A DNA stretch of 32,000 bases, taken from contig DATBGU010000075.1 in NCBI GenBank assembly GCA_036557825.1, positions 34,867 through 66,866 of the forward strand, given 5' to 3'. Positions 12,830 to 28,517 of this stretch are shown here, piece by piece. The translations under genes were made by a program, and so were the position numbers. Position 1 is the first letter of the stretch; the number at the start of each line of letters is the position of its first letter. The stretch is from Gemmataceae bacterium (GTDB taxonomy: Bacteria > Planctomycetota > Planctomycetia > Gemmatales > Gemmataceae). A model generated the notes under the pieces. That model was given only the letters and a program-made list of their open reading frames with translations. It was not told where the DNA came from and searched no databases.

Positions 12830-15568
12830 TCAGGGCAGCTTGTCCCAGTCGATGATCTCGCCTCCGTTGCGGGTGATCAGCGCGCGGAGCGATTTCTCGC
12901 CTATCGTCTGGGGGATAAAGCGAACCGCCCCATCGACCGTGGCGGCGTGGAAGCCATCCTTGAACAGACCGCCGAGCTTGGGCAACGGTCCCTTCGGGTC
13001 GAAGGTCAGATCCTGCGGCTTCGTCCACGGTACCGATTCAGCGGCCTCCGCGATGAGCAGGGTGTAGGTGGAGCCGTCCCGAACATCCCCCCGTGGGGTG
13101 CCCCGTGGACCATCAAAGACAGCTCCGGGACCGACGAACACCTGGTACCGTGTATTGACAAGATCCGTCGGGTTGACGTTGCCGGGAAGGTTCCCCAAGC
13201 GGGCGGTTTCAAACACTCTGGGGATCAGCGGCAGAAGCTTCTTGTTGTGCTCGCTGTCCCACGGCTCATCCAGCTTGAAACGCTTGTATAAAGCCTCCTG
13301 TTCGAGATACGGCAGCAGGGCGACCCGCCAGCTGAGGAGGGGCGTGCTGTCCTTGCCTCGGATGCTCTGCGGCGGCAGGCGGCCGTGAGTGGCCTCGTAG
13401 TTCAGCATGGCGAGCGCCAGGCTTTTCAAGTTGTTGCGACTGACCGTGCGTTCGGAGGACGAGCGGACCGCGAGGGTGGAACCAAGGACCGAGGAGCTGG
13501 CCTGCGCCACCAACGTCGCCGGAGTTCGCTCAATCTGGAGGGTGGCCCGCACCGTGCCTTCCTGCATTTCGACGTGCGGGTTATCCAGGGCCGCGACGCA
13601 GTCGTTGAGCCAGCGCAACTGTCCAGTGAGCGTGACGTCGCTCTTGGCCAACGTAGCCAGAAACGGCTTCAGTTTGCGGTAAAGGAGGGCGAGAGCGGCC
13701 TTGATCGCCTGCTGGCTCTCGCGAACGGGAACCTGCGGCGGGAACTCAACATTCAGGGCGATCCGTGTTCGCGCATGCGGGCTGACATCCATCGTCAGGG
13801 TGGCGCCGTGTGCGCTCAGCAGCGGCCGAAGCGCAGGCTCTTCCTTGAGGAACTCGTCGCCGATCCACTTCTGGAGAAACTCGGGCGGATACAGCCCGGC
13901 CACGATGAGATGTTTTTCCGCTCCCTGCTTGAGCACGCTCGTCCACGGACCGGGGGCGTCCGACCGACTCGGCCGGCGAAGGACACGCTTCATTTCGGCT
14001 GGCGGAGCGAGCACGAACGTGCGGTCGTTGACGAAAGACACGGCGTTCTTGCCCGGCCGCTGGGTTGCGTCCGCCGTGTGGTAGGTGACATCGCCGTCTG
14101 TCAATCGGCGCGGCTTGGGCGGCAGCAAGGCGGCCAAGATCTTGTCGCGCGGGACGTCTCCAGTTGTCGTGACGATCACCACGGGGTCGGACAGGGTGCC
14201 GTCCTTTTCGGAGCGGAGCAGGAAAAGCACTACCCGCTCGACTTCCGAGGGCGCCACTCCCAACCATTCTTGGAGCGGTTGGAACGCTTGGTCGAGGTCT
14301 CGCGCGGCACGCTCGCGCAGAGGCTGGGCGGCCGGGCTTTTGCGCAGGGCCGCCAGGTCGAGGAATATGAAGCCGAAGGCCTGCGGGGGCACGAGAGCGA
14401 GGTCCGACGGCAACGAAGCAGCTGGAGCAACAACGGACGGTTCGGGCGGTGTCTCGATCTCGGCAGGGGGAGCAACTCGACCGCGATGAATCAGCGCGAA
14501 CGTCAACCCCACGGCTGCCGTCACCGCGGCACCGGCCGCCAACCAAAGAAACTCACGGCGGCGGAGCGATCGGCCGAGGCGCTCGATCGGCCCTGGGCGG
14601 CGGGCGAGAATCGGCTCGCCGTCGAGGAAGCGCCGCAGGTCGGCGGCCAAATCCGCGGCAGTGGCATAACGCCGTCGCGGCTCCTTTGTCAGCGCCTTCA
14701 GACAGACCGTTTCGAGGTCGCGCGGAATACTTCGGTCCAGAGCGCGGGGCGGCTTCGGCTCCGCGAATCGCACTTGATGGAGCAGCATGCGTGCCGTGCC
14801 GCGGTAGGGGAGTTGCCCCGTGAGTAGCTGATAGAGGATGACGCCGAGACTGTAAACGTCGCTGCGGCCGTCCACGAGATGGGACTCACCGCGCGCCTGC
14901 TCGGGGCTCATGTAGGCGGGGGTGCCGAGCACCTGTCCTTCGTGGGTTAAGGTCGCTTCCGCGCCGTCGCGGCGGGCAAGACCGAAGTCCATCAGGTGGG
15001 GTTTGCCGGCCTCGTCGAGCATGACGTTGGACGGCTTGACGTCCCGATGGATCACGCCGCGGTCGTGGGCGTACTGCAAGGCGTCGGCGACGGCGGCGAC
15101 GAGACGGGCGGCTTCCCGCGGACTGGGCCGACTGCCCGAAATGAGGTCGGCCAGCGTCATACCTTGGACGAATTCATTCACCAGGTAAGGCAGGCCGTCC
15201 TGCTGTCCGACTTCGTGGACGGGCACGATGGAGGGATGACGAAGTTGGGCGACACTGCGCGCTTCACGCAGAAAACGCTGCAAATCGTCGCTGCCGGAGA
15301 GGATACCTGCGCGCGGAACTTTGATGGCGACTATGCGATCCAGTTCGGGATCGCGGGCCTTGAACACGGTGCCGAAAGAGCCGGCACCAACCTGATCGAG
15401 CAACTCGAATCGTCCCACCCGGCGTGGGCCGTCCAGCGGCCGCCAAACCACGGTCGCACAGGTGTTCGGCGGAAAACTTGAGCCGCAAGAGGGACAAAGC
15501 ACCTCCGCCGGCAAATTGTCTTCCGCCAGTTCTACAGTTCCCTGACAGGTCGGGCAGATGAGGTGCAT
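12830..15568 (-). CDS. Ser/Thr protein kinase. Architecture: N-terminal zinc ribbon, Hanks kinase domain, TM helix, ~350-aa extracytoplasmic region, C-terminal DUF1559-like domain.
   Basis: ATG at 15568 gives MHLICPTCQG..LCPSCGSSF. Kinase motifs: GAGSFGTVFKA, VAIKV, HRDVKPSNVML, DFGLAR, GTPAYMSPEQ. TM helix FLWLAAGAAVTAAVGLTFALI. C-terminal ~203 aa (12833-13441): SRNNLKSLALAMLNYEATHGRLPP...LLSWRVALLPYLEQEALYKRFKLDEPWDSEHN...VDGAVRFI. The ORF-track extension to 15943 overlaps the next gene and looks non-coding. Confidence 0.85.
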   Translation of the reverse strand: MHLICPTCQGTVELAEDNLPAEVLCPSCGSSFPPNTCATVVWRPLDGPRRVGRFELLDQVGAGSFGTVFKARDPELDRIVAIKVPRAGILSGSDDLQRFLREARSVAQLRHPSIVPVHEVGQQDGLPYLVNEFVQGMTLADLISGSRPSPREAARLVAAVADALQYAHDRGVIHRDVKPSNVMLDEAGKPHLMDFGLARRDGAEATLTHEGQVLGTPAYMSPEQARGESHLVDGRSDVYSLGVILYQLLTGQLPYRGTARMLLHQVRFAEPKPPRALDRSIPRDLETVCLKALTKEPRRRYATAADLAADLRRFLDGEPILARRPGPIERLGRSLRRREFLWLAAGAAVTAAVGLTFALIHRGRVAPPAEIETPPEPSVVAPAASLPSDLALVPPQAFGFIFLDLAALRKSPAAQPLRERAARDLDQAFQPLQEWLGVAPSEVERVVLFLLRSEKDGTLSDPVVIVTTTGDVPRDKILAALLPPKPRRLTDGDVTYHTADATQRPGKNAVSFVNDRTFVLAPPAEMKRVLRRPSRSDAPGPWTSVLKQGAEKHLIVAGLYPPEFLQKWIGDEFLKEEPALRPLLSAHGATLTMDVSPHARTRIALNVEFPPQVPVRESQQAIKAALALLYRKLKPFLATLAKSDVTLTGQLRWLNDCVAALDNPHVEMQEGTVRATLQIERTPATLVAQASSSVLGSTLAVRSSSERTVSRNNLKSLALAMLNYEATHGRLPPQSIRGKDSTPLLSWRVALLPYLEQEALYKRFKLDEPWDSEHNKKLLPLIPRVFETARLGNLPGNVNPTDLVNTRYQVFVGPGAVFDGPRGTPRGDVRDGSTYTLLIAEAAESVPWTKPQDLTFDPKGPLPKLGGLFKDGFHAATVDGAVRFIPQTIGEKSLRALITRNGGEIIDWDKLP

Positions 15569-15803
15569 GGACGATCCCCTCAAGAGGAAGATCGCGGAAT
15601 GCCAGTAGTGTAATACGGATAGGGCGGAATAGCAACGAGGACACGCGGGGAAACCAGGAGGTTTCAAGGTGCTTTCTCGATCTCGATGGCGGCCTTTTGC
15701 TCTTCGGACAGAGAAGCTACGCCGTCCAACGGAGTTGGGGATTATGCATTCCGCAAGAGGATTCGGGGACGCGATGTTGGTTGCGAAGAAGCAGCCGGCC
15801 GAT

Positions 15804-17102
15804 TTAGCGTGCGGAACCGAGTGCCGCCAGGTCGGTTTCGCCCTGGAAAGGGAAGGGAACGGGTCGGCGGCCCGAACTGGATTCTCGGCGGCCCGATACG
15901 CTTTTGAAACCGAAAACAAGACTTGAGACGGCGACCTGGGCAAGACGATGCTGAAAGCTCACCCGAGCCGACGCGGGTTGATAGGACCGAATGGCCTGCT
16001 GATAAACATCGCGCACCCGTGCGATGGAATGGTCCCAGTTCATACCCATGACGGCCGCCCGGGCGGCGCGGCTGATCCGAACGCGGAAATCCTCGTCCGA
16101 CAGGAGCGAGTGAATGGCGTCGATTGCGTCTTGGAGGCTTCGCGCCGCATACAACATGCCGGTATCGCCATGTGAAACGAGGCTAGGGATGCCGCCGGCG
16201 CGAGGGGCGACAACCGGGCAGCCGCAGGCCATCGCCTCCAGGACGACGTTACCCATCGTCTCGGTTTCTGAGGCGTACACGAAAGTGTCCGCGGAGGCGT
16301 AAGCCGCAGCCAACTCCGCGCCCCGAAGATAGCCGATGAAATGGGCGTTCTTGCCGGCGAAGCGACGCTCCAGTTCCGAGCGCTGAGGACCATCGCCAAC
16401 CACCGCGAGCGAGACGCCGGGAAAGTGATCGAGGACATCGGCCAGAAAACCGACGTTCTTCTCGGGCGCTAGGCGCGACACCGTCAGCAGGAGGGGTCGC
16501 TGAGTCGCACCGTTTGTCAGTCGATATCTCATCTCCGTGCTTTGCCGCGCTGGGTTGAATAAATCACCGTCAACCGCGGGAGGCCAAAGTTCGACGCGCC
16601 GGAACCCCCGCTCTGTAAGCTCGTCGCGCATGATGCTCGATACGGTGAGATTGACATCCGCTCGATTGTGGTATTCGCGCATGAACCACCATAACAGATG
16701 GGATAAGGGTTTGAGCAGCTTGTACTGCTTGACGAATTCGCCGTAGAGCGTGTGAAACGAAAACACACTGGGTACGCGCACGTCAGCCCGGCGCAGCGAA
16801 TCATGACAGCGGAACCCGAAAGCGAAGGGGTTGACATAATGCAACACATCGGGAGCGAAATGGTCCAGCACTTTCACCAGCCGTTTATTAGGTAAAGCGA
16901 TACGGTATTCGGGATAAAGGGGAAAGGCGAAGCTGGGAAACTCGACAATGGGTACCGGGCACGCCTTGCTTCCATCCGCCTGAGGACAGATAACCATGAC
17001 GTCGTCGTTGGAGCGAAGCAGCTGATGGATGAGGTTCATCGTCCGATTGACGACTCCGTCCACCTTGGGCAGAAACACCTCGGCGAGAATGGCAATACGC
17101 AT
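15804..17102 (-). CDS. GT4-family (GT-B fold) glycosyltransferase, SqdX / diacylglycerol-glycosyltransferase-like
   Basis: The N-terminus MRIAILAEVFLPKVDGVVNRTMNLI is typical of SqdX/UGDG-like GT4 enzymes. The C-terminal donor domain has LLTVSRLAPEKN...FVYASETETMGNVVLEAMACGCPVVAPRAGG (EX7E-type). ATG at 17102 with GGAGG ~8 nt upstream. Confidence 0.8.
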   Translation of the reverse strand: MRIAILAEVFLPKVDGVVNRTMNLIHQLLRSNDDVMVICPQADGSKACPVPIVEFPSFAFPLYPEYRIALPNKRLVKVLDHFAPDVLHYVNPFAFGFRCHDSLRRADVRVPSVFSFHTLYGEFVKQYKLLKPLSHLLWWFMREYHNRADVNLTVSSIMRDELTERGFRRVELWPPAVDGDLFNPARQSTEMRYRLTNGATQRPLLLTVSRLAPEKNVGFLADVLDHFPGVSLAVVGDGPQRSELERRFAGKNAHFIGYLRGAELAAAYASADTFVYASETETMGNVVLEAMACGCPVVAPRAGGIPSLVSHGDTGMLYAARSLQDAIDAIHSLLSDEDFRVRISRAARAAVMGMNWDHSIARVRDVYQQAIRSYQPASARVSFQHRLAQVAVSSLVFGFKSVSGRRESSSGRRPVPFPFQGETDLAALGSAR

Positions 17103-17193
17103 CTCCAACCTCCCCAATCAAGAAAAAAGCCAAGCGATCATCACTTTCCATGCTCGATTCGTCGCGAAGGCTACCAAGACAATTTGGCGGGGG

Positions 17194-18015
17194 CTACGGT
17201 TTTCGGGACAGGGCGATGACGATCTTGTGGTAATCCTGAATGGGAAAAAAGAACGCATTCAGGAAGGCGCGGATCATCCAGCCCGCCTTGTGCAAACCGA
17301 GAACCTCCAGGAAAGGAGTCAGCCAGCCGCCATAGTAGGCGAACTCCATGAAATCATTGAAGTTGGCAAAATGAAGATTTGGACAAAAAGTCTCGCATTC
17401 ACAAACCTCGAAACCATTCGTCTCCAGAGTGCGAACCACATCATTCTGGTCAGCAGGGTTGCAAATGTGTTCATCAACCTTCAATGTGGAGCTGCCGAAC
17501 AGCCATTTTTTCTGAGGCACCACCTTGGCCTTTCGTTGAAGGTTGGGAAATCCTGCCTTGGTCCCACCCACGAAGGACCAAATGCCGCCACCCACGAGCT
17601 TGCCCCATACCTTCGGCGCCAAAACTCCAAGAGGAACAAACCCCGTGATAAAATGCGTGCAAATCATGTCGAAAGACAGTAACTGAAAATGGTTCTCCAG
17701 ATTGGAGACGTCATCGACGGAGGGCGTCAGGTCGGGGATGCGTCGGCAGGCGACATCGATCATTTTCTGGGAAAGGTCAAGCCCATAGGGGTGGATGCGC
17801 CGCACGGAGTGCGCACGCAATTGCTCGAGGAATCGGCCCGTGCCGACACCTAGATCGAGCACATTCATCGGACCCTCATCGCCGGCATCCAGAGCGAGAC
17901 GCTGGATCTGCTCGAGCGCCCGCTCCAAAGAATCACCGATGACCGAGTGCGGATCGAAATCGTAGCGGGGAGCAATGACTTCATCGTACTGGCGCTGGAT
18001 GACATTGGCCTGCAT
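17194..18015 (-). CDS. Class I SAM-dependent methyltransferase
   Basis: Motif I VLDLGVGTGRFLEQL. Post-I acidic residue in YGLDLSQKM. ATG at 18015 with AAGGA ~10 nt upstream. The substrate cannot be predicted from sequence. Confidence 0.7.
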   Translation of the reverse strand: MQANVIQRQYDEVIAPRYDFDPHSVIGDSLERALEQIQRLALDAGDEGPMNVLDLGVGTGRFLEQLRAHSVRRIHPYGLDLSQKMIDVACRRIPDLTPSVDDVSNLENHFQLLSFDMICTHFITGFVPLGVLAPKVWGKLVGGGIWSFVGGTKAGFPNLQRKAKVVPQKKWLFGSSTLKVDEHICNPADQNDVVRTLETNGFEVCECETFCPNLHFANFNDFMEFAYYGGWLTPFLEVLGLHKAGWMIRAFLNAFFFPIQDYHKIVIALSRKP

Positions 18016-18061
18016 CTGAAGGTATCCTTGTTAAAGTTTAGGTATGCTGTGACCGTAAGCA

Positions 18062-18622
18062 TCATGGATATTGGGTTGACCGTTCGGGTGGCGCGGTGCT
18101 CGGTCGGACAACTAGCCTTTCGCCGCGCCCAAGGGAATGCCGCGCCAACCACTTTTTGTGATCGAACACGAGGTAGTTCAACAACATCGGCACTTCGTAA
18201 ACGGACAGTAGAACGAATAAGATAATGCCTTTTCTGTATTTCTTGTTGAACTCCGTCATGTCCCATTCTCGGACATAAACCTTATGACTCCATGCCTGAA
18301 TCTTATACAACGGGTAGATAGCCAGCGCGTAGACCCAGGCCGGCCATGCGGGCAGCGATATAACAAGGGCGATGACCACCACCAGAAATGCCGCGCTTCC
18401 GACCAGCACTTTCAGAGGAACATTCATAACGAGAATCGCCAGGTGGAGAACCGCGATCCCGAGCAGCGGCCACTCGAAGCCGAACAATCGCTGGACGATG
18501 GCGTACAGACATAGATAGATGCCCATCACAACCGTGATGTGAATGACGTTGATACCAAATTGGGAGTGGCGGCAAAGGTGCCGATCGTACAGTTCCGGAA
18601 AGTTGACTCTGAAAATATTCAT
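18062..18622 (-). CDS. Polytopic membrane protein, DUF962 / Mpo1-like (putative Fe(II) dioxygenase family)
   Basis: About four TM helices. HSQFGINVIHITVV and QAWSHKVYVRE...LLSVYEVPMLL resemble the HHNPxNxxIH and QFxGHxxFE...APxFxxxE motifs of yeast Mpo1/DUF962 (recalled from memory). The ATG at 18620-18622 overlaps the upstream TGA (ATGA), implying translational coupling. Confidence 0.5.
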   Translation of the reverse strand: MNIFRVNFPELYDRHLCRHSQFGINVIHITVVMGIYLCLYAIVQRLFGFEWPLLGIAVLHLAILVMNVPLKVLVGSAAFLVVVIALVISLPAWPAWVYALAIYPLYKIQAWSHKVYVREWDMTEFNKKYRKGIILFVLLSVYEVPMLLNYLVFDHKKWLARHSLGRGERLVVRPSTAPPERSTQYP

Positions 18623-20751
18623 GGTGTCTCCCGTCGATAGGCCTTCCATTTGTCCCGAAAAGATATAGTCGCCATCGTTCGCAAGACGGAAAAAAACAAT
18701 CGGTGAAATGGCTTGTGAAGCGTGGCCGAGATGGCGTCACAAACCTGCTCGATCTCCGCGTGGGTTATCGAAAGGGGAGGGGTGAACTTCAGCACGTTAG
18801 GTTCGTATTGGCAATAGCCCATAAACACGGGGAATGACGCGTTACGGAGCAGGTCGTAGATATAAAACGATGAAGTCTTTCCCTTTAGCCATCGTAGCAG
18901 CCAATTGTTCGTGTTCAGTTCGATGGCGATCAAGAGTCCGAACACGCGCACGTCACGCACCGCCCTGCACGAAGAAAGCCGATCGGACAAGAGCTTGGCG
19001 AATATCCCGCTGGACTCCGATACCGTCTCGGATAGACCGATTTTTTCAGCTCGTGTCAATGTATTTAGAAGGGTCTTGTAGCCGAACTCGTAATCGCAGC
19101 GCCGGCGCAGTGACCGCGGCAAACAAGATCCTATGGCATCGAGCCGTGTCTGAACGGACTCGGAATAAAGCGTCACGGCGAAGGGAAACATCATGTCGGA
19201 GGTGCCCTTCCCGATCGTCAATAGGTCGGGAGAGACACTCATTTTCGCGGACAAGGTGAAGGGGCCGGTCCGATACATCCCGGTCTGCACTTCGTCCACG
19301 AAAAGCAGATAATTCCGCTCGTGCCGGCGCGACTCCAGATGGCGGACAACTCTTTCCGGGATTGCCCGCACGCCTCCGACGGCCTGGATCAATTCCATCT
19401 GCACGATTCCGATCGGGTAGTTTTCCAGGGCATCGTCAAGGGATTGCAAAGCACCCTTCGCAAACGGGTCAACGTAGACCACTTTTTCGTAAAGTGGGCC
19501 TAGGTGTTTCTTGTAGGATTCTCGGGCGGTGCCGGTGAGCGCCAGCAACGTCTTACCGCCGAAGCCGCCCTTTAGAACCAGGACATATTCTTTAGGGTGC
19601 TGGGCCGCCAAGCCGATCCGAAGGGCGTTTTCCACCGCTGAGGCTCCGCTCACCGCGGGAAGCAGATGCTCCAGTCCTGTCAACTCACGAAGCCGCGCGG
19701 ACACAGCTACGTTGGGATCCGCCACATGATGCAAGTCCGCGAGTTCCCCGATGTAGTTTTCGGGATTGTGCCCGCGCACGCTGCAAGCGACTCCCCCCAC
19801 ACCGTCGAAGATCCGCCGACCTTCGGCGATCACGTAATGCCCGGCGGCCTGCACGTTGAGGGTGTCCAGACCCAAAAGCGAAATGGTTTTCCGCAACGAG
19901 GGATTATACAAGTCGCTAAGCAGCGCCTCGCAAATCGCCGGATTCGTGCGAATGCTTTCTAACTCATGCGCTAAACTCGACAAAAAGTCCGGATCATCTT
20001 TTTCCAGACATTTCAGAAAGTGAAGACTGGAAATCGAGTTTGGCTGATAAGTTGTGGAATGAAAGGTAGCGTTTCGAGAGACATTCCAGTAATCGTACAA
20101 GGTTCTTCGGGCCGCAAAGGCTCCGAATGGAACGTGATGATGCGCGAACGACTCGTCGAAAACAACGACATCTGGAGCCAGCCGCTTCCAGAGCGTGGAG
20201 GCCGACCCTCGACAGTGATTCAGGGTGGGACGGTCCACACAGACGATTCGGACGAGCGACTGTCGCTCAATGAATTCCAGAATGTCGCCTACATTCTTGT
20301 ATGACTCCAGGGCGGGCGAGAGGACCAGCACGACGAACCCAAAGCGATCCTCTGGCCCGAAAGCCACGCCGCGCTCAATCTCTTCCCGCTCAAGGACTTT
20401 CAGGCTCGGTACAAACTCGATGCGAGATTCGCCACCGATCGTGACGGAGACGAACGGTCCAAGCTGCCCGTTGCAATCGAGGACGAGGCCTTTCTGCGGT
20501 CGTTTTTCAACGCCCGCGGCATAGCGAGCCAGTTTGATCGCGCCGCTAAGGGCTTCATCGAAGCTATTGGCAAGAAAGCTCTGATAGGGGGGCTTTTCCG
20601 GATTACGAGAGTGCCAGGTCTCCTGGATGTACCGGTTCAGGCAGAAACACGCTTCAACGACGTGCGGGTTCAAATGGAGGCGGAATAGGTTCGGCGTTCG
20701 CCGCGCGACCAGTTCGTCACAGGTGTCCAGGAATGGGTGGCGAGTATTCAT
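18619..20751 (-). CDS. 710-aa class-III (PLP) aminotransferase-family protein. It has an intact C-terminal domain and a degenerate N-terminal ~290-aa half that resembles the same fold.
   Basis: C-terminal domain: AGHYVIAEGRRIFDGVGGVACSVRGHNP, SGASAVENALRIG, LLFVDEVQTGMYRTGPF, LLTIGKGTSDMMFPFA (PLP Lys), VRVFGLLIAIEL, NVLKFTPPLSIT. N-terminal half: LNPHVV.., FLANSFDEALSGAIKLAR (compare F-x-N-S-G-x-E-A-x-E-x-A-x-K-x-A-R), VVVFDESF, HSTTYQPNSISS (compare H-x-x-T-F-x-G-N-P). It has no equivalent Lys segment. Confidence 0.8.
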   Translation of the reverse strand: MNTRHPFLDTCDELVARRTPNLFRLHLNPHVVEACFCLNRYIQETWHSRNPEKPPYQSFLANSFDEALSGAIKLARYAAGVEKRPQKGLVLDCNGQLGPFVSVTIGGESRIEFVPSLKVLEREEIERGVAFGPEDRFGFVVLVLSPALESYKNVGDILEFIERQSLVRIVCVDRPTLNHCRGSASTLWKRLAPDVVVFDESFAHHHVPFGAFAARRTLYDYWNVSRNATFHSTTYQPNSISSLHFLKCLEKDDPDFLSSLAHELESIRTNPAICEALLSDLYNPSLRKTISLLGLDTLNVQAAGHYVIAEGRRIFDGVGGVACSVRGHNPENYIGELADLHHVADPNVAVSARLRELTGLEHLLPAVSGASAVENALRIGLAAQHPKEYVLVLKGGFGGKTLLALTGTARESYKKHLGPLYEKVVYVDPFAKGALQSLDDALENYPIGIVQMELIQAVGGVRAIPERVVRHLESRRHERNYLLFVDEVQTGMYRTGPFTLSAKMSVSPDLLTIGKGTSDMMFPFAVTLYSESVQTRLDAIGSCLPRSLRRRCDYEFGYKTLLNTLTRAEKIGLSETVSESSGIFAKLLSDRLSSCRAVRDVRVFGLLIAIELNTNNWLLRWLKGKTSSFYIYDLLRNASFPVFMGYCQYEPNVLKFTPPLSITHAEIEQVCDAISATLHKPFHRLFFSVLRTMATISFRDKWKAYRRETP

Positions 20752-20757
20752 GACGGT

Positions 20758-22554
20758 TCACATACTGTGTTTTCCGGGATTCATCCGGGCCGCACGAAAA
20801 GTCTGTTTCACATAGGACTCGAAGGCTCGCTTGTGTTTTTTAAGCATAAACAGGTCCACGGATACACAGTCTTGTTCCCGAAAGGGAGAGTTGGGAAACC
20901 CGTCGCGCCGTATGTATCGAACCTGAATTTTGGACAAAGGCAAAGCGTCATGTGTCTTCCAAAACATTGCAAAGTCGTCTTCGGGCAAAAACAGCTCAAC
21001 GTGGTGAGCGAACCGGCGAGTCAGGCCATGGAACAGTGCCGACGTGATCGGATTGGATTCCAGCCGATCCCACAAGCTGCCCAGTCTGTCTCGCGGTAGT
21101 TCTAGGGGCACCGAGTCACCGTCGGGCGGGCTCATGTAATACTGGTATACCCTCACTTCAGTAGAAGCCACCCCGGCTTTGCGTAACTCGATGTTCGCGG
21201 CCCTGTGGTCCTTGAACAAGGCCAGGATCTGCTGGCTCGACGGATTTGCCATCGTCCGCATTATTCTGAAATAGCGTGTTTTGTCTCTGATTTTTAGAGT
21301 GAGTTGTAACAAAAGTACATCGGTCGATAAGTTATACATATAGCGGGCAAAGGTGGGATCCTGTCGAGATGCAACGAAGAATTGATCATCAATTGGATCG
21401 TAGAGACATACTTTTTCAATTGTCTCGGCCAAGGTGCAATACTTACTGGCCGACCCATGAATGGGGATAAAATAGGACGTCCCAATGCTGACGTATGAAT
21501 AATTGGGTACGACATGCAATTCTTTATTATTCGTTGCCAGCAAGCTCATAGCTTCCCGAACGGTGACGCCTCCATCGAACCGGGCAAGGTCATCCCAAAG
21601 TCGAACCCCATGGTTGCAACCTGCGGTTGAGAGAATTGTCTTGCCTGGATGACGCTGGCCAAAATGGGTAACGCCGTTGTTATAGCCAACAATTTTAACA
21701 TGTCGATAATTATATTTGTTGTATAGTACAAGTAGATCTCGAACCGTGGTTGGTCGCAGTGTGTCGAAACTCCACATTCGCATTTCGGGGAACAGTTTAA
21801 CGACTAAGCCAAACAACAGGCCGGCGACCTGTCCCAGCAACAATCGCAGCAAGAGAGTGGTCACTCGGACAACTACTGACAACGGTCGGCCCTCGCTCTT
21901 TTTCGCGAGCAGATGTGTCCACGGCCGATTAGGTCCAAGCAGGGTGAAAACCCGATGTCTTCGGAAGTTTGTGGATTTCAACTCCCCTTCAACAGCCGCG
22001 AACAACTCGTCGCCTTCCACACAGCAACCTTTGAAGCGCTCCGGCACAACCTGTGAGAGGAATCGCAACATCCCAATACGCGCGCTCAATACCGAGCAAG
22101 GGCTGTTGATGGGTGCGGGGCGAAACACCACGACTCGGCCTGGCAACCCTCGCAAGCATTTGACGGCCCATTCTTCGGTTTGTGTCGCACGTCGATCGCC
22201 GAAATGAACACGCAATGAACTGATGAGGCACACACATTCGGCGCTCTTCTTCCTCGCGATCTCGGAGACTGTCTCAAGCAGCTTGCGGTTGCAGGCTGTC
22301 AGCTTGCGGTTCAGAAAAACGACCACACCGGCGAGAGAGTCGCATGAGTGTGTCTCCAGATACTCTGACGAATCAAAATGCTCGATCGGATGCATGTCCA
22401 CAGTTTTATTGATTCCGCCACAAATATCGGAAGTTGTAACCACCGACAGCCGACGCCCCTCCACCCGACTCGCGAATGCGGCGTAATCGGCGATTGCCGG
22501 GTTGTTCGCGCCCGCGATCAGCAGCACTTTGTCCACAGTCTTTCTCCGACTCAA
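20758..22554 (-). CDS. VAO/PCMH-type FAD-binding oxidase-like protein (gulonolactone/arabinonolactone-oxidase-like). It has an N-terminal Rossmann-like region and a central TM helix.
   Basis: FAD_binding_4-like stretch: VKIVGYNNGVTHFG...GKTILST...ARFDGGVTVREAM..LHVVPNYSYVSIGTSYFIPIHGSA. ALO-like C-terminus: SKIQVRYIRRDGF...VDLFML...NPGKHSM. TM segment LLLRLLLGQVAGLLFGLVVKLF. The start is uncertain: TTG at 22554, 3 nt after the upstream stop, or an in-frame GTG a few codons downstream. Confidence 0.65.
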   Translation of the reverse strand: MSRRKTVDKVLLIAGANNPAIADYAAFASRVEGRRLSVVTTSDICGGINKTVDMHPIEHFDSSEYLETHSCDSLAGVVVFLNRKLTACNRKLLETVSEIARKKSAECVCLISSLRVHFGDRRATQTEEWAVKCLRGLPGRVVVFRPAPINSPCSVLSARIGMLRFLSQVVPERFKGCCVEGDELFAAVEGELKSTNFRRHRVFTLLGPNRPWTHLLAKKSEGRPLSVVVRVTTLLLRLLLGQVAGLLFGLVVKLFPEMRMWSFDTLRPTTVRDLLVLYNKYNYRHVKIVGYNNGVTHFGQRHPGKTILSTAGCNHGVRLWDDLARFDGGVTVREAMSLLATNNKELHVVPNYSYVSIGTSYFIPIHGSASKYCTLAETIEKVCLYDPIDDQFFVASRQDPTFARYMYNLSTDVLLLQLTLKIRDKTRYFRIMRTMANPSSQQILALFKDHRAANIELRKAGVASTEVRVYQYYMSPPDGDSVPLELPRDRLGSLWDRLESNPITSALFHGLTRRFAHHVELFLPEDDFAMFWKTHDALPLSKIQVRYIRRDGFPNSPFREQDCVSVDLFMLKKHKRAFESYVKQTFRAARMNPGKHSM

Positions 22555-22557
22555 GAT

Positions 22558-23439
22558 TCAACCAGGGACCGAAAAAACTGGTTGGCCGTAATGGACTTTT
22601 TCATTTGTGCCGAGATGGGTTATCAACCGGTCGGCTGACTGAACGATCAGAATGGCTGTAGAACCGAGTTCAAACGTCGCGATCCAATCTCCTTTTTGTA
22701 CTTGCAAACCCGGGTCATGCTTGAAGCTGGTCATTCTCTGTAGCCGCGGTCGAAAATGCCGACCTCGGGGGAAGGTGATATTGCCGACCCCCCACCCCGC
22801 CACCAATATGAGAAAGCACCTTCCGAGTCTGCTGGACAGGCTCAATATCACTCGCTCATTCAGCGAGAAGACTGGGTACTTTGGCGTATGATACGTTGGG
22901 TGGACGAGCAGTCGATAGCCCGGTACGTGCACGATTGTCTCGATCACTCCGTCTTGAGGGCTAAAAATGCGGTGACAATCGCTGGGCGACAAAAAAATTA
23001 TCGCGTAATGACCATTGTGAATCGGATGCGTGTCTATCCCGGCCAGCAAGGAGCCAACGCTGTACTCGACTCCCTTGACCGTCAGGATTTTTTCTTCCTT
23101 GATCTCGCCCATCTCCTGCACCGTGCCGTCGCACGGGCAGAGGAACTGGTTTGTCAAGGGTGAGATCGGCCTTAGTTCCCGCCGCACACCTCGCGTGAAC
23201 AAGGCGTTGAACGATGGATACGCCCACAGTGGTTGTTCCAGTTCCGACTCGTCCAGGGCGGCGTATTTCCTGCCGTAGATGGTCCGATAGAGCCGAACGC
23301 GCAGTCGCTTGGAGGGGATTCTTACGCGGGACAGCCGGACAGCCAACGCAGCCACGCAGGCGTTCAGAACTCCCCCGTGGATTGCCGACGCTTGTCGGCA
23401 CTGCTCCAGTCGAGTCTCGAAAGCCCGGGCATTCCTCAT
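22558..23439 (-). CDS. psd: Phosphatidylserine-decarboxylase-family pyruvoyl proenzyme
   Basis: Motifs IIFLSPSDCHRIFSPQDG (compare LSPxDYHRxHxP), SLNERVIL, and the self-cleavage site FELGSTAILIV (LGST). ATG at 23439 with AGGAGGGG ~7 nt upstream and 14 nt after the upstream stop. The ORF-track start at 23643 would overlap the GMC gene by 190 nt. Confidence 0.8.
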   Translation of the reverse strand: MRNARAFETRLEQCRQASAIHGGVLNACVAALAVRLSRVRIPSKRLRVRLYRTIYGRKYAALDESELEQPLWAYPSFNALFTRGVRRELRPISPLTNQFLCPCDGTVQEMGEIKEEKILTVKGVEYSVGSLLAGIDTHPIHNGHYAIIFLSPSDCHRIFSPQDGVIETIVHVPGYRLLVHPTYHTPKYPVFSLNERVILSLSSRLGRCFLILVAGWGVGNITFPRGRHFRPRLQRMTSFKHDPGLQVQKGDWIATFELGSTAILIVQSADRLITHLGTNEKVHYGQPVFSVPG

Positions 23440-23453
23440 CGGCTCGTCCCCTC

Positions 23454-24953
23454 CTATATTTCGCGGTTGACAACATCCGCGACGCGCAGTGCGTTCGCGA
23501 TAATGGTCAGCGCGGGACCAACCCCCAGCGAGGTCGGGAAGAAACTGCCATCCACGACGAACACGTTCGGGTGACCGAACAACCGGCACTCCGGGTCGGC
23601 CGCGGCGTGAAGCGGGTCTATGCCGAAGCGCACGGTGCCACACTGATGGGCGACGTGCTCGCTGGAAGGAAACGATTTGGCCAAGCAGACCAAAGCCCCC
23701 GCGTTTCGCAGGATGCGCCTCATGTAACGACTTAATCTCCTGCCGCGCTCCAGATCATAGCGGGAGAATTTGTGAGTTAGTTCGGGCAGTCTGTCCGCAC
23801 CGAGGCACACTCGGTTCGCCGGGTTCGGCAGATCCTCGACGATCCCCGTCAACGGCAACATGCGATGCCGCAGAAACTGGATCGCGCTCCGCGGCAGGCG
23901 TCCGGCGGTCATTTTGCGCATCAGCAGTGGTCCGGGGACCGGAAGGGACTGCACGATCCCCATTTTGTGCGGATAGCGCGGCGTGCCGAAGTAGTAATCC
24001 GCGAAGCAGACCTCTTTGATATACGTCTCGTCCCCTCCCGTCCGTTTGTAAAACAAGCCAATAACGATCGGCGAGAGATGCATCATATAGTTTCGGCCGA
24101 TCCAACGTCCCTCCACCCCCGATCGCAATAGAAGCGCCGGTGAAGCCAAGGCCCCCGCCGCAAGCGCATATCGCTTCGCTCGGAACTCCGAGCGCTGTCC
24201 CGTGGAACGATCCAGAACGCGAACGCCAGCGATATGGCCTATCGCGTCGAGGGAAAAGCGTTCAACCTCAACGCCAGTGAACACATCCAGAGGAAGTCTC
24301 TCCTCCATGCCTCGCTCGACGAGTTGGGCGGAGGAGCGGCGAGCCCCGTTGATGCACACATATCCGGGGCAGGACGAGCACTGTAAACAGCGGCCGAAAT
24401 CAATCGCCAGCGGCAGGCGGAACGGCCGTAGTCCCCGCGCCCGGTTGGCGGCAATCAGCTGCTGATTGATCGTTTTGGGTGGGAGGAGCCTGGAGGGAAA
24501 CCCGCGTTGAGGCCGCTGGAGAGGCCCGAAGTCGTCGTCGGCGCAGCCGGAGACGCCATAGAGTGCTTCCGCCTCTGTGTAATATGGCTCCAGTGTTTTG
24601 TAGTCGATCGGCCAGTCCCAGATCGCCTTTGGGATGCGCACGCCGTAGGACGCGCCGGGATGAAAGTCCTCTTCGCTTGGCCGCATCAGTGCCGCCCCAT
24701 ACAGCGATGTTCCTCCGCCGAAAATGCCTCCCATATACAGCTGACGCTTTGAGCCGTTTACACGAACCGGCCGGTCATCGTACGGTTTCTTGTCCATCAA
24801 CATGGCTTGCTCGTCGTGAACCGGCTTCTCCAAGGTCGATTTGCGCCCCTTCTCCAGCAGGAGCACTTGTTTCCCGGCTCGCGCGCAAGCGTAAGCGAAA
24901 GTTCCACCTCCCGCTCCACTGCCGATCACGATAACATCATAATCGCAGAGCAT
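23454..24953 (-). CDS. GMC-family FAD-dependent oxidoreductase (first gene of the operon)
   Basis: N-terminal dinucleotide fold YDVIVIGSGAGGGTFAYACARAGKQVLLLEKG. Cys-rich CLQCSSCPGYVCINGARRSS segment. C-terminal GMC motifs HQCGTVRFG and NVFVVDGSFFPTSLGVGPALTIIANALRVAD. I preferred the ATG at 24953 (MLCDYDVIVIG) over the start at 24995. Confidence 0.85.
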   Translation of the reverse strand: MLCDYDVIVIGSGAGGGTFAYACARAGKQVLLLEKGRKSTLEKPVHDEQAMLMDKKPYDDRPVRVNGSKRQLYMGGIFGGGTSLYGAALMRPSEEDFHPGASYGVRIPKAIWDWPIDYKTLEPYYTEAEALYGVSGCADDDFGPLQRPQRGFPSRLLPPKTINQQLIAANRARGLRPFRLPLAIDFGRCLQCSSCPGYVCINGARRSSAQLVERGMEERLPLDVFTGVEVERFSLDAIGHIAGVRVLDRSTGQRSEFRAKRYALAAGALASPALLLRSGVEGRWIGRNYMMHLSPIVIGLFYKRTGGDETYIKEVCFADYYFGTPRYPHKMGIVQSLPVPGPLLMRKMTAGRLPRSAIQFLRHRMLPLTGIVEDLPNPANRVCLGADRLPELTHKFSRYDLERGRRLSRYMRRILRNAGALVCLAKSFPSSEHVAHQCGTVRFGIDPLHAAADPECRLFGHPNVFVVDGSFFPTSLGVGPALTIIANALRVADVVNREI

Positions 24954-25440
24954 TGGACCTCTGGAACGTGAATGCGATGCGCCTGGAACACGCACGTCAT
25001 CTTTGCCTTAACATGACGAGCAATTGGTTGTTATCAACTCGATACCATCATCGTTCCATCATCAAATCTTTTCCTACGCGCTCCCCGCGCGTTGACGTGC
25101 TCAAGATCTTCTCAAGAGCACGGTACATCTCTTCCTGAAATGTCACTCGGTTTTTTGAAAAACCATGATCAAGGGTGGCTGTGACATTTGCCACGCTTCA
25201 CGCCTCGTTCAACCTAAATCCAGTGCAACACCACGTCAAGACAAGTGCGATAAAACTCATCGAGGTTTCACCGCTTCTCAACGCATTTTATATCCCTTAC
25301 TCCAGGAGCGGAGGCGGACAATTGAAGCCGTGTATACAGTCCTTGTGAAACCTTCACTTGACCTTGTGAGAACCTACACAAGTATTTGATAGGGTTTTCG
25401 AGGCGGAAACTCCCAGACATCCTGTAAGGGAGCGAAAGCG
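24954..25440. promoter_or_regulatory. AT-rich divergent intergenic control region between the seven-gene operon (-) and the LpxH-like gene (+)
   Basis: It is 487 nt without a credible ORF and the most AT-rich stretch of the window. Repeats seen: 7-2-7 inverted repeat GGTTTTT-TG-AAAAACC (25149-25164), nested inside the 9-bp inverted repeat AAATGTCAC (25138-25146) / GTGACATTT (25181-25189). GTGCTC..GAGCAC (25097-25121) contains a direct CTCAAGA duplication. CCTTGTGA is repeated directly at 25341 and 25362. TTGACC at 25358-25363. I could not call an exact -35/-10 pair with confidence. Confidence 0.5.
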
Positions 25441-26187
25441 ATGGAGTTGTTTGACGCAATCATCCTCTCGGACATCCATCTGGGCAGCAACAACTGTCAG
25501 GCGAAGAACCTGTGTCGCTTCCTGGAGATGATCCACGACGAAGAAATCGCCACAAACCGCCTCATTTTGAACGGCGACGTCTTCGATTCGATCGACTTCC
25601 GACGCCTGAGCAAGTCCCATTGGAAAGTTCTCTCCCTGATCCGCAAACTGTCGGATCGTCTCGATATTATCTGGATATCCGGCAACCACGACGGTTCCTC
25701 CGATATCATCTCACATCTTCTCGGCGTCACGGTGAAAGATGAGTACGTCCTGCGGAGTGGTGAGCGGGATGTTTTGTTTCTTCACGGCCATGTTTTCGAC
25801 TATTTCCTCGACGCCCATCCGATCCTGACCTGGATTGGAGATTGTGTTTACTTGCTCCTCCAATGGATCGACCAAACGCATTACTTTGCCAAGCTGGCGA
25901 AGAGAGGCAGCAAGACTTTTCTGCGCTGCGCCCAGAAGATCGAGGAGGGGGCGATCGATCGTGCGCGCAAGAAGGGCTGTCAGATCGTTTGCTGCGGCCA
26001 CACGCATCACTCGATCGCGAAGCGACAATCGCCGATCGCCTACTACAATAGTGGCTGCTGGACGGAACTTCCCTGCACCTATTTGACCTTGCGAGATGGA
26101 CGTGTCGAACTGCACACGTTCAAAACGCACAAAGTCGAGGAGCAACCTGTCGAGCCGTTGCCGTCCCTCGCGGTCCAACCGGGGTGA
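25441..26187 (+). CDS. Calcineurin-like metallophosphoesterase, LpxH-like (UDP-2,3-diacylglucosamine pyrophosphatase family)
   Basis: Ordered metallophosphoesterase motifs: LSDIHLG, LNGDVFD, SGNHDG, LHGHVFD, CCGHTHH. The size (248 aa) and motif spacing resemble LpxH/COG2908. GGGAG lies ~9 nt upstream of the ATG. Confidence 0.7.
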   Translation: MELFDAIILSDIHLGSNNCQAKNLCRFLEMIHDEEIATNRLILNGDVFDSIDFRRLSKSHWKVLSLIRKLSDRLDIIWISGNHDGSSDIISHLLGVTVKDEYVLRSGERDVLFLHGHVFDYFLDAHPILTWIGDCVYLLLQWIDQTHYFAKLAKRGSKTFLRCAQKIEEGAIDRARKKGCQIVCCGHTHHSIAKRQSPIAYYNSGCWTELPCTYLTLRDGRVELHTFKTHKVEEQPVEPLPSLAVQPG

Positions 26188-26234
26188 GCGAGAAAGGTTC
26201 GTCGCTCACCGCAGCTGATCTGTGGATTCAGCTG
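26183..26234 (+). terminator. Two tandem stem-loops at the 3' end of the LpxH-like gene (candidate terminator, non-canonical)
   Basis: GGTGAGCGA (26183-26191) pairs with TCGCTCACC (26202-26210); this stem overlaps the TGA stop. CAGCTGA (26212-26218) pairs with TCAGCTG (26228-26234). No T-tract follows. Confidence 0.3.
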
Positions 26235-26360
26235 TCAACTCCGCATCAACGCCCACCAATCCGTCTGGCGATCGTCGCGCGGGATTGGCGGATATCGCTC
26301 CATTTCGTACCTTACCGATGGATTCGACATCCTCCCACCTACCGCAACAGGAGCGAACTC

Positions 26361-27074
26361 ATGTCCTGCCGACCCCTCGTCGTCTTGCTCGCCTCCGCCC
26401 TGGCCGCCGTCTTCGTTATCCTGCCCGCCGCGACGGGCGCGGAGGCCGAACCCGTCGCCCTGAAAAAAGGCGACCGCATCGTCTTTCTGGGCGACTCCAT
26501 CACCGAGGCCGGCGTCCGAGCTAAAGGGTACATCACCCTGGTCAAAAAGGCTCTGGGGGAGAAGAGAAAGGATCTCGGCGTCGAGATCCTCGGCGCCGGC
26601 GTCAGCGGCAACAAGGTGCCCGATTTACAGCGTCGGCTCGATCGGGACGTGCTGGCCAAGAAGCCTACTCTTGTGGTGATCTACATCGGTATCAACGATG
26701 TCTGGCACGGCGAGAAGGATCCGGCCCGCGGCACTCCCAAGGACAAGTTCGAGGCGTGCCTCAAGGACATCATCGGCAAGATCAAGGGCACGGGGGCGCG
26801 CGTCCTCCTCTGCACGCCCAGCGTCATCGGCGAGAAACCGGATGGCTCCAACAAGCTCGACTCCCGCCTCGACGAATACGCCGCCGTCAGCCGCGAGGTG
26901 GCGCGCGAGGAGAAGGTGCCGCTGTGCGACCTGCGGAAAGAGTTCGTGGACTATCTCAAGAAGCACAATACCGAGAAGAAAGAGCGTGGAGTTCTGACCA
27001 CGGACGGCGTCCACCTCAACGAAGCAGGCGATCGCTTCGTGGCCGGCCTTATGCTCAAGGCTCTCGGCGAGTAG
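26361..27074 (+). CDS. Secreted SGNH/GDSL-family hydrolase (lipase/esterase)
   Basis: ATG at 26361 with AGGAG ~8 nt upstream. Signal peptide MSCRPLVVLLASALAAVFVILPAATGAEA. SGNH blocks: FLGDSITEAG (I), GVSGN (II), IYIGINDV (III), DGVHLN (V). The ORF-track start at 26184 adds a non-protein-like leader. Confidence 0.85.
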   Translation: MSCRPLVVLLASALAAVFVILPAATGAEAEPVALKKGDRIVFLGDSITEAGVRAKGYITLVKKALGEKRKDLGVEILGAGVSGNKVPDLQRRLDRDVLAKKPTLVVIYIGINDVWHGEKDPARGTPKDKFEACLKDIIGKIKGTGARVLLCTPSVIGEKPDGSNKLDSRLDEYAAVSREVAREEKVPLCDLRKEFVDYLKKHNTEKKERGVLTTDGVHLNEAGDRFVAGLMLKALGE

Positions 27075-27176
27075 TCGGCCGGCCTTTCTTGTGTTCCGCC
27101 CGTCCTCCCAGGCGCGACACCAGGGAATCGGTAAACGTGTGGCTTGCCAGGGGCTTCGACCGAGTTTCGAGCGGCG

Positions 27177-28454: not shown

Positions 28455-28467
28455 GATCGTTCCTCCC

Positions 28468-28516
28468 GTAGGTCAGGCTTTCCAGCCTGACAGTCAGGCT
28501 GGAAAGCCTGACCTAC
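28468..28516. repeat. Perfect palindrome (family 2) between the RND permease stop and the adaptor RBS
   Basis: Arms GTAGGTCAGGCTTTCCAGCCTGA (28468-28490) and TCAGGCTGGAAAGCCTGACCTAC (28494-28516) are exact reverse complements with a 3-nt loop. It starts 1 nt after the permease stop (28518-28520) and abuts the GGGAGG Shine-Dalgarno of the adaptor gene. Confidence 0.9.
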
Positions 28517-28517
28517 A

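Follow-up and report, generated by a model that had tools for sequence, protein, structure and literature searches.

This work concerns a set of enzyme genes on a 32,000-nucleotide (nt) stretch of DNA from a Gemmataceae bacterium (GenBank assembly GCA_036557825.1, contig DATBGU010000075.1, positions 34,867 to 66,866), which is called the window here and is numbered from its first nucleotide. The gene set is a real, conserved cassette which is found across Planctomycetota and is ancient there. At a probability of roughly 45%, we propose that the cassette tailors a membrane-lipid head group to an N-methylated amine and that this activity is tied to phosphate-sparing lipid remodeling, a reading based on homology, structure prediction and gene context. 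Every cassette protein belongs to a known superfamily, and no described counterpart of their combination was found: full-text literature searches returned no description of it, just as the original prediction, made from the letters of the window before any database search, had matched the genes to no described operon.

The core of the cassette encodes a GMC-family dehydrogenase, a pyruvoyl enzyme of the phosphatidylserine decarboxylase (PSD) family, a VAO-fold flavoprotein, a tandem class-III aminotransferase and a small membrane protein; a methyltransferase, a GT4 glycosyltransferase and a metallophosphoesterase are frequent companions. In the proposed sequence of events, the PlcP-like phosphoesterase would release diacylglycerol (DAG) from phospholipids, and the Agt/GpgS-like GT4 enzyme would place a sugar onto DAG or onto a glycerol-type head group. 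The flavoprotein and the GMC dehydrogenase, which carries a cysteine motif, would oxidize the hydroxyls of a terminus of the polyol, sugar or glycerol kind, yielding a carbonyl or a 2-oxo-acid, and the PigE-like tandem aminotransferase would install an amino group. The Mpo1-like membrane protein may anchor the aminotransferase at the membrane or act together with it, or may oxidatively decarboxylate a 2-hydroxy-acid intermediate. The PSD-like enzyme would take the alpha-carboxylate off the resulting alpha-amino acid, and the methyltransferase would methylate the amine. The net change would lead from -CH(OH)-CH2OH or -CH(OH)-COOH to -CH2-NH(CH3)n, that is, the chemistry which converts serine via ethanolamine to choline would be carried out on a scaffold probably lacking the phosphate seen by true phosphatidylserine (PS) decarboxylases. 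Read in this order, the enzyme set would form a coherent series of terminal diol, 2-hydroxy acid, 2-oxo acid and 2-amino acid.

Candidate products include an amino-deoxy-glycosyl-DAG, an amino-polyol head group, of which an aminopentanetetrol-like group is one conceivable form, and a phosphate-free analogue of ethanolamine or choline; any specific product among them is at best improbable. A broader idea, doubtful but less so, is that the cassette makes a new lipid class: glycerolipids or glycolipids which are free of phosphate, bear an N-methylated amine and are cationic or zwitterionic, and which would substitute for phosphatidylethanolamine (PE) and phosphatidylcholine (PC) under phosphate limitation. 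Such a class might include N-methylated amino-deoxy-glycosyl-DAGs or lipids whose head group is an amino-polyol.

Conservation and composition of the cassette

The distribution of the cassette genes was followed in a census with hidden Markov models over 49 loci. Homologues of the flavoprotein were placed in 46 species-level genomes and several metagenome contigs, the carriers being Gemmataceae, Isosphaeraceae (including the isolate Aquisphaera insulae JC669, locus L028), Tepidisphaerales, Pirellulaceae and unclassified Planctomycetota. Wherever the contig was long enough, the order GMC enzyme, PSD-like enzyme, flavoprotein, aminotransferase and membrane protein is kept, with protein identities to the window of 30-86% and with unrelated flanks, in at least four planctomycetal families. 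The GMC gene was detected in 46 of the 49 loci. In 38 loci, a methyltransferase gene, encoded on one strand or the other, is found no more than ~5 kb from the core, and the GT4 and metallophosphoesterase genes are present in 24 and 19 loci, respectively (the latter in 14 of the 27 loci with full flanks). At least four arrangements of the phosphoesterase gene occur: divergent from the GMC gene, as in the window; co-directional, with a stop codon that overlaps the start of the GMC gene; downstream of the methyltransferase gene; and in an operon of phosphoesterase, GT4 and methyltransferase genes. That these three genes are kept nearby despite the shuffled arrangements argues for a functional linkage.

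This synteny supports the view, put forward in the original prediction, that the genes form one functional unit. The aminotransferase, VAO-type and PSD-like genes, whose co-occurrence in other genomes had been proposed as a search, are colinear there and not scattered. The seven-gene operon originally described is indeed a conserved unit, but not a fixed one: an invariant core of five genes is joined by the methyltransferase, GT4 and metallophosphoesterase genes as frequent accessories. The neighboring SGNH lipase gene, which had been counted with the system, is not part of the cassette (0 of the 49 loci).

Some genomes hold more than one version of the gene set. Two metagenome-assembled genomes (MAGs) carry two diverged cassette copies each, DATBHJ01 (L009 and L011, with flavoproteins 66% and 52% identical to the window protein) and MFD01716.bin.2.43 (L031 and L046), which suggests duplication or repeated acquisition. 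A complete cassette of ~40% G+C was also seen on a contig binned as a cyanobacterium (L020, JAJEAQ010000216.1, labeled Trichodesmium sp. MAG), where it is flanked by MFS, HAD-hydrolase and AdhE-like genes; either a binning error involving an epibiont or a transfer outside Planctomycetota would account for it.

In the window, the cassette coincides with a deviation in base composition. The G+C content is 0.548 at 16500-26340, compared with 0.637 at 1-16499 and 0.636 at 26341-32000, and the values of 1-kb segments do not overlap between island (0.515-0.611, n = 10) and flanks (0.612-0.676, n = 21; Mann-Whitney p = 1e-5). The G+C content at third codon positions (GC3) is 0.58-0.71 in island genes and 0.77-0.86 in flank genes, and the island departs two to three times more strongly from the tetranucleotide profile of the flanks (distance 0.34-0.35) than flank chunks do (0.12-0.16). 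The claimed lower-GC island of ~10 kb is therefore real by G+C, GC3 and tetranucleotide use. The dip is patchy, with the GMC and GT4 genes reaching ~0.60. Seven of the eight 60-nt lines counted by hand for the original prediction were reproduced exactly, but the line at 26401 has 77% G+C and not ~72%; the gene order, the intergenic gaps of 14, 3, 6, -4, 46 and 91 nt and the ATGA overlap at 18619-18622 all agree with what had been reported.

A deviation of this kind might mark a recently acquired foreign island of unrelated genes, whose adjacency would have no functional meaning. In keeping with this explanation, the G+C content lies 8.5 points under that of the flanks, GC3 and tetranucleotide use deviate as well, and the location of the cassette varies among close relatives. 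A dip of 6-8 points relative to the flanks recurs in the three closest of these (L058-L060; aminotransferase identities 77% and 69%), whose flanks differ from those of the window and from one another. In L058, the closest of all, whose flanks are higher in G+C, an IS605 OrfB-type helix-turn-helix fragment (9311-9886) lies 3 kb from the low-GC cassette. In 22 more distant loci, however, the G+C content of the core matches that of the flanks (mean difference over 23 loci, window included, -0.007, not significant). The genes are moreover colinear across families at 30-80% identity with conserved gene overlaps, and around the island in the window neither a transfer RNA gene, nor an integrase or transposase open reading frame, nor convincing flanking direct repeats of the att kind were found; the lack of integrase and transposase genes had been claimed before and holds for the open reading frames of the window.

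The G+C dip is thus confined to one sub-clade of the cassette, where it occurs in different genomic places, which fits lateral movement among Gemmataceae. Such movement is compatible with a functional unit, and the dip does not mean that the genes are foreign to the phylum. As a full explanation, the foreign island is refuted by the synteny census, and we regard it as barely credible. What remains of the island claim is the compositional deviation itself; a simply foreign origin does not follow, since the cassette is phylum-wide and the dip limited to a sub-clade.

Core enzymes, accessory enzymes and control region

The family calls for the GT4, SAM methyltransferase, Aminotran_3, PS_Dcarbxylase, GMC, Metallophos and GDSL proteins were upheld by Pfam and NCBIfam, whereas the VAO-type and Mpo1-like calls lack a direct Pfam match and are supported indirectly, the former by a structure model and fold search and the latter by weak family-wide matches to PF06127. 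Three proteins had been credited with transmembrane segments; this stands for the small membrane protein (~4 helices) and the flavoprotein (one helix), but the signal of the PSD-like protein is marginal and that of the SGNH protein is a signal peptide.

The PSD-family decarboxylase (293 amino acids (aa); 22558-23439, minus strand) matches PF02666 (E 3e-42), TIGR00163 (144.6 bits, cutoff 111.75) and the E. coli PSD structure 6l06 (E 2e-26). It keeps the LGST motif and the equivalents of D90, D142 and H144, and the motifs 'PCDG', 'LSPxDCHR' and 'FELGST' are conserved (in comparison with E. coli residues 57-235). The published work on the E. coli enzyme names LGST and a D90/D142-H144-S254 triad as self-cleavage and catalytic residues, describes a monotopic membrane association, and reports that Tyr137 contacts the lipid phosphate and that this position is Tyr in 85% and Arg in 15% of the family (PMC7952604). 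At the same position, at least 90% of 44 cassette decarboxylases have Phe, and in the window protein the Ser166 position is Leu and the His147 position is Phe. The changes at Tyr137 and Ser166 suggest, as far as aligned residues can be read, that the substrate is an alpha-amino acid without phosphate at the position contacted by Tyr137. They are no proof, as the Y137F mutant of E. coli PSD is still about half active (~50% of activity retained; PMC7952604). The decarboxylase is the only cassette protein which reaches an equivalog cutoff, and it fails one defining substrate-contact feature; the PSD-like call in the original prediction accordingly holds for family and catalytic residues, but the phosphate-contact position sets the protein apart from true PS decarboxylases.

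The class I S-adenosylmethionine-dependent methyltransferase (273 aa; 17194-18015, minus strand; PF13649 and related families) has a conserved C-terminal extension of ~130 aa. When 16 family members were scanned, NCBIfam returned only generic class I matches of the UbiE/CpaM/PmtA kind; 15 of the 16 matched Legionella PmtA weakly (best E 3e-8), no better than UbiE, CpaM and BioC. PDB sequence searches with the methyltransferase and the phosphoesterase were uninformative.

These two enzymes could also serve an alternative route, in which phosphatidylglycerol (PG) is converted via phosphatidylglycerate and phosphatidyl-hydroxypyruvate to PS, PE and finally PC. The oxidases and the aminotransferase would build PS on the glycerol head group of PG, the decarboxylase would then be a genuine PS decarboxylase and the methyltransferase a PE N-methyltransferase, in a lipid-bound analogue of the phosphorylated serine pathway. 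The TIGR00163 score, the intact catalytic residues and LGST motif and the weak PmtA matches are consistent with such a route, as is the best model of the GT4 enzyme, which describes a PG-glycosylating protein (see below). Also in its favor, alditol oxidases act on glycerol-type 1,2-diols, and GMC enzymes of the type found here act on 2-hydroxy acids, e.g., gluconate. The exchange of the phosphate-contacting Tyr137 for Phe, and of Ser166 for Leu in the window protein, speaks against it, the PmtA matches do not stand out from those to UbiE, CpaM and BioC, and both the PlcP-like phosphoesterase and the Mpo1-like protein would be left without a role. We consider this route unlikely; even if the product were ordinary PE or PC, however, the cassette would mark out another way of making these lipids.

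In the preferred reading, the two oxidoreductases would oxidize a polyol-, sugar- or glycerol-type head group. The GMC-family FAD (flavin adenine dinucleotide) dehydrogenase, encoded by the first core gene (499 aa; 23454-24953, minus strand; PF00732, PF05199), has as nearest solved structures the Burkholderia FAD-glucose dehydrogenase (FAD-GDH; 8hdd and 6a2u, E 9e-22) and the large subunit of Gluconobacter fructose dehydrogenase (7w2j). Its CxxCxxCxxxxC motif (Cys189, 192, 195 and 200) is kept in 34-36 of 36 family members. In FAD-GDH and fructose dehydrogenase, a Cys-rich insert binds a 3Fe-4S cluster. Together, the motif and the insert of these relatives point to an electron-passing dehydrogenase rather than an oxidase; genes for a partner cytochrome c or small subunit were found in none of the neighborhoods inspected.

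The two-domain VAO-fold flavoprotein (598 aa; 20758-22554, minus strand) has no Pfam match in the window, and PF01565 is present in some of its homologues. Its AlphaFold2 model (mean predicted local distance difference test score, pLDDT, 84.6; built on 24 homologues) predicts an N-terminal alpha/beta domain (1-220), a hydrophobic helix (225-252) and a C-terminal domain of VAO/PCMH fold, so that an FAD-binding PCMH fold with a cap domain is seen in the model, as the VAO-type call implied. In Foldseek searches, the top matches were alditol oxidase 2vft (E 3e-15, probability 1.0, target-normalized TM-score 0.58), L-galactono-1,4-lactone dehydrogenase and DprE1 (E ~1e-15 to 1e-13 overall). The family is small and isolated: a search of 1.84 billion proteins yielded 252 representatives at E <= 1e-3. 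Both oxidoreductases are akin to enzymes which act on sugars, alditols, aldonolactones or lipid-linked ribose, and because their greatest similarity is to dehydrogenases of sugars, polyols and aldonolactones, the group which they oxidize is probably a polyol or sugar-type head group. A sterol-directed alternative, in which the flavoprotein would be DHCR24-like and the GMC enzyme cholesterol-oxidase-like in sterol-making Gemmataceae, was rejected: the cassette is also present in Isosphaeraceae, Tepidisphaerales, Pirellulaceae and others, and the fold matches, among solved structures, are to alditol oxidase, galactonolactone dehydrogenase and DprE1.

The tandem class-III aminotransferase (710 aa; 18619-20751, minus strand) matches PF00202 over residues 302-678 (E 5e-37), with a catalytic C-terminal domain at ~300-680. 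The nearest relative of this domain in both NCBIfam and PDB is PigE (NF053554, E 6e-38; 4ppm, E 5e-23), which aminates a hydrophobic aliphatic aldehyde. The motif DEVQTG (D486, E487, Q489, T490, G491) and K515 are invariant in 27 sequences. For the N-terminal domain (1-290), the sequence signal is weak (Pfam E 0.003), and an hhalign profile comparison of the N- and C-terminal halves was not significant. The model of this domain (pLDDT 80), in turn, has class-III aminotransferases as all of its top 50 Foldseek matches (best 4ppm, E 1e-9), and on this structure prediction the N-terminus is a degenerate second class-III aminotransferase fold. It is probably non-catalytic, because there is no Lys at the Schiff-base position. 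Thus, the 'double' aminotransferase of the original prediction is recovered at the level of the modeled fold, with marginal evidence for a duplication at the level of sequence.

The small polytopic membrane protein (186 aa; 18062-18622, minus strand) has ~4 hydrophobic helices and invariant residues H15, H19, H28, Q109, H113 and D121. The window protein itself has no Pfam match; 11 of 17 family members match PF06127 (Mpo1-like) weakly, with a best E of 0.003 and all below the gathering score, and among 120 homologues listed there is not one precomputed Pfam domain. A distant relationship to Mpo1/DUF962 is thus weakly suggested. Yeast Mpo1 oxidatively decarboxylates 2-hydroxy acids. The overlap between the genes of aminotransferase and membrane protein recurs in other loci, and the ATGA overlap points to a consistent translational coupling of the membrane protein to the aminotransferase.

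The same set of enzymes might act on soluble compounds. In such a pathway, a sugar or polyol would be turned into an N-methylated amino-polyol or amino-sugar and glycosylated by the GT4 enzyme, to yield a compatible solute, a signal or a secondary metabolite; an aldose would pass through aldonate, 2-keto-aldonate and 2-amino-aldonate to a 1-amino-1-deoxy-alditol, and the membrane would be contacted only for electron transfer. The nearest solved relatives of the GMC and VAO enzymes do use free sugars, alditols and aldonolactones, and the GT4 enzyme also matches the small-molecule glycosyltransferases BshA (E 5e-24) and MshA (E 1e-22). A GMC enzyme combined with a class-III aminotransferase follows the logic of NeoQ/NeoB, by which a sugar CH2OH becomes CH2NH2, and a related oxidase, 7dve, is among the weak GMC matches. 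The PSD family and the Mpo1-like, PlcP-like and Agt/GpgS-like proteins, however, have characterized relatives which are lipid-directed, the flavoprotein contains a hydrophobic helix, PigE takes a hydrophobic aldehyde as substrate, and neither a transporter nor a sugar kinase is conserved beside the cluster. A soluble pathway, including the aldonate route, therefore appears improbable to us.

The lipid-directed reading is strengthened by two of the accessory enzymes, the metallophosphoesterase and the GT4 enzyme, which resemble PlcP-type enzymes and the glycosyltransferase encoded next to one of them. The metallophosphoesterase (248 aa; 25441-26187, plus strand, divergent from the core genes; PF00149) has the metal motifs of calcineurin-like enzymes (DxH, GD, GNHD, GHxH) within invariant alignment columns. 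It is 29% identical over its full length to the Sinorhizobium meliloti protein encoded beside sinR/sinI (E 2e-22, 80 bits), which, from the gene order, we take to be SMc00171, the characterized PlcP, and 27% identical to a Roseomonas homologue (E 4e-26, 90 bits). The gene of the latter is directly followed by a glycosyltransferase gene in an apparent operon. The match to E. coli LpxH is weaker (24% identity, E 7e-4, 25 bits), and the label 'LpxH-like' of the original prediction is better replaced by PlcP-like, given 80-90 bits to PlcP-type proteins and 25 bits to LpxH. LpxH serves as the outgroup for PlcP in published phylogenies (PMC4796936, PMC8528852, PMC9239053), and characterized PlcPs share ~46-47% identity (PMC8528852). 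Two subtypes occur among the cassette phosphoesterases: those of L044, L047 and L050 contain GDxxDGW and an insertion, as do two proteobacterial PlcP-type proteins, and the window type contains NGDVFDSIDFRR.

For the GT4 glycosyltransferase (432 aa; 15804-17102, minus strand; PF00534, PF13439), the best NCBIfam model is the GlcNAc-phosphatidylglycerol synthase GpgS, matched near full length (E 3e-41; 141.6 bits, where the cutoff is 480); the MGlcDAG synthase model gives a score of 84, its cutoff being 400. The protein has a two-domain GT4 architecture with the E-x7-E motif (ETMGNVVLE) and is 33% identical to the Roseomonas glycosyltransferase encoded beside the PlcP-like gene (E 3e-39). GpgS is a GT4 enzyme which glycosylates the head group of PG (PMC12713373).

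Between the GMC and phosphoesterase genes lies a divergent control region of 487 nt (24954-25440) with 48% G+C. A putative sigma-70-like promoter of the core operon, TTGACG-17 nt-TAGGTT, is located at 25211-25239 on the minus strand and would be followed by a leader of ~250 nt (24954-25210). Both its -35 and its -10 element can be aligned between the window and L008, L009 and L010, and the same is true of the GTGAA(A/G)C motifs that flank them and of a purine-rich 'GATGA' block close to the start codon. Generic scans for sigma-70 promoters and terminators gave counts not above those of shuffled sequences, and the aligned core-operon promoter was not listed by them. Within the leader, a perfect 9-bp inverted repeat (25138-25146 and 25181-25189, AAATGTCAC ... 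GTGACATTT) encloses the near-palindrome GGTTTTTTGAAAAACC and is partly shared with L009. Folded as RNA, the repeat is no better than shuffled sequences (z = -1.6), and since it is unexceptional in this respect, it may be a protein-binding site. A riboswitch or other leader RNA in the 487-nt region was considered and rejected, with no Rfam match at the gathering score or at E <= 1 and a fold no better than shuffles. A Pho box (CTGTCAT-N4-CTGTCAT) was not evident by eye in 24954-25440, although this consensus is proteobacterial and may not be the planctomycetal PhoB site.

Several neighboring genes were noted in addition. On the JGI 3300047160 soil contig, which carries P0106, a gene for a 1659-aa PhoD-type phosphatase lies ~600 nt upstream of the phosphoesterase-GMC operon, a single case; past the methyltransferase gene, at a distance of ~2.5 kb, a phage-type integrase is encoded. 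In the window, a Ser/Thr protein kinase fused to DUF1559 (SBP_bac_10) is encoded directly downstream of the GT4 gene on the same strand (12830-15568, minus strand); such genes are typical of planctomycetes, and this one is not conserved beside the cassette elsewhere. The right flank of the island contains an RND efflux pair, i.e., a membrane-fusion protein and an AcrB-like transporter (27177-31718, minus strand), which has a normal genomic G+C content and was not found beside the cassette in the other loci inspected.

The case for a lipid head group

The proposed tailoring of a lipid head group places the cassette at the membrane, and three of its proteins fit this setting: the small protein is polytopic, the flavoprotein contains an inter-domain hydrophobic helix, and the nearest solved relative of the decarboxylase is E. 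coli PSD. A number of observations nevertheless weigh against the proposal. With PlcP-type proteins the phosphoesterase shares only 27-29% identity, and in the window it lacks the GDxxDGW of the two PlcP-type proteins with which it was aligned, having NGDVFDSIDF in place of GDIVDGW. About half of the loci have no phosphoesterase gene within 10 kb, and half have no GT4 gene within that distance. The cassette contains no acyltransferase and no head-group transferase other than the GT4 enzyme. The methyltransferase could be O- or C-specific instead, the link of the membrane protein to Mpo1 is weak (best E 0.003), and soluble sugars are the main substrates among the relatives of the GMC and VAO enzymes, which leaves room for a soluble amino-polyol product. 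Lastly, the decarboxylase scores above the PS-decarboxylase cutoff of TIGR00163, and a Phe at the Tyr137 position is compatible with activity on PS to the extent that the Y137F mutant of the E. coli enzyme is about half active (PMC7952604).

A membrane substrate other than a glycerolipid would be the side chain of a hopanoid. The -CH(OH)-CH2OH terminus of bacteriohopanetetrol would be oxidized, aminated, decarboxylated and methylated to an amino-bacteriohopanepolyol, which the GT4 enzyme may glycosylate. A polyol terminus of this kind would suit the chemistry of an alditol-oxidase-like and a GMC enzyme, and a hydrophobic substrate without phosphate would suit the changes of Tyr137 to Phe and Ser166 to Leu in the decarboxylase. 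The known step in amino-hopanoid formation is likewise catalyzed by a class-III aminotransferase, HpnO. Yet shc, hpn and radical-SAM genes occur in none of the neighborhoods inspected, the PlcP-like enzyme would have no role, and we know of no chain-shortened amino-hopanoid. Hopanoid tailoring is, in our view, highly improbable. The synthesis of N-glyceroyl-alkylamine phosphoglycolipids of the type found in Deinococcus, Thermus and Bacillota was also considered and rejected, as neither an amide ligase nor a phosphatidyltransferase is present.

Soils, peat and waters harbor abundant planctomycetes, whose membrane lipids are poorly understood. Environmental lipidomics, in turn, recurrently detects nitrogen-containing intact polar lipids for which neither a producer nor a pathway is known. 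The cassette is small, self-contained and expressible, and therefore offers direct access to what may be a new phosphate-sparing lipid and to a change of substrate within the PSD family. It also contains several unusual proteins: an aminotransferase with a degenerate tandem domain, a VAO protein with an extra domain from a family of ~250 clusters, and a GMC enzyme with four cysteines and no partner subunits.

Relation to known systems

Among individual cassette proteins, the decarboxylase is compared best with E. coli Psd (6l06, 7cnw), with which it shares the pyruvoyl-enzyme family, the LGST motif, the catalytic equivalents and a TIGR00163 score above the cutoff. It differs in that the cassette clade has Phe for Tyr137 and in that its gene lies in a cluster of oxidase and aminotransferase genes and not with pssA. 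PigE (4ppm) is the nearest relative of the catalytic aminotransferase domain in both sequence and structure, and both proteins have a long N-terminal extension. In the cassette protein, however, this extension is predicted to be a degenerate class-III aminotransferase fold without a match to the N-terminal part of the PigE model, and the score of 131 bits is far under the PigE cutoff of 850.

Like the alpha subunit of FAD-GDH (6a2u) and fructose dehydrogenase (7w2j), which are membrane-associated, the GMC enzyme has the GMC fold with a similarly placed Cys-rich insert. Its cysteines have the spacing CxxCxxCxxxxC, neither a cytochrome c nor a small Tat subunit is encoded nearby, and no signal peptide is evident on reading the N-terminus. 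The membrane protein, like yeast Mpo1 (a 2-hydroxy fatty acid dioxygenase; PF06127/DUF962), is small and polytopic and has conserved histidines, but every member of the cassette family stays below the gathering score of Pfam, and the window protein is unmatched. The gpgSDF genes of Pseudomonas aeruginosa offer a counterpart for the GT4 enzyme, for which GpgS is the best NCBIfam model; the cassette differs from them in containing neither the GpgD deacetylase nor the GpgF flippase, and in a score that stays below the GpgS cutoff.

At the level of the gene cluster, the closest parallels are operons of PlcP and Agt, which are established as a bacterial means of exchanging phospholipids for glycolipids under phosphate limitation (PMC4796936, PMC8528852, PMC9239053). 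As in these operons, which are represented by those of Sinorhizobium, Phaeobacter, SAR11 and P. aeruginosa (PA3219/PA3218), a metallophosphoesterase of the PlcP/LpxH lineage is combined with a GT4 lipid glycosyltransferase, and in some planctomycetal loci the two are encoded in one operon. The differences are that identities are low, that the window phosphoesterase lacks GDxxDGW, that a Pho box was not recognized, and that in the cassette the pair is accessory to a core of five enzymes with a methyltransferase, for which the PlcP-Agt operons have no counterpart. The cassette thus joins a PlcP/Agt-like remodeling pair to a module of oxidases, aminotransferase, decarboxylase and methyltransferase, and we rate it as a variant akin to the bacterial operons for lipid head-group synthesis and for remodeling under phosphate starvation.

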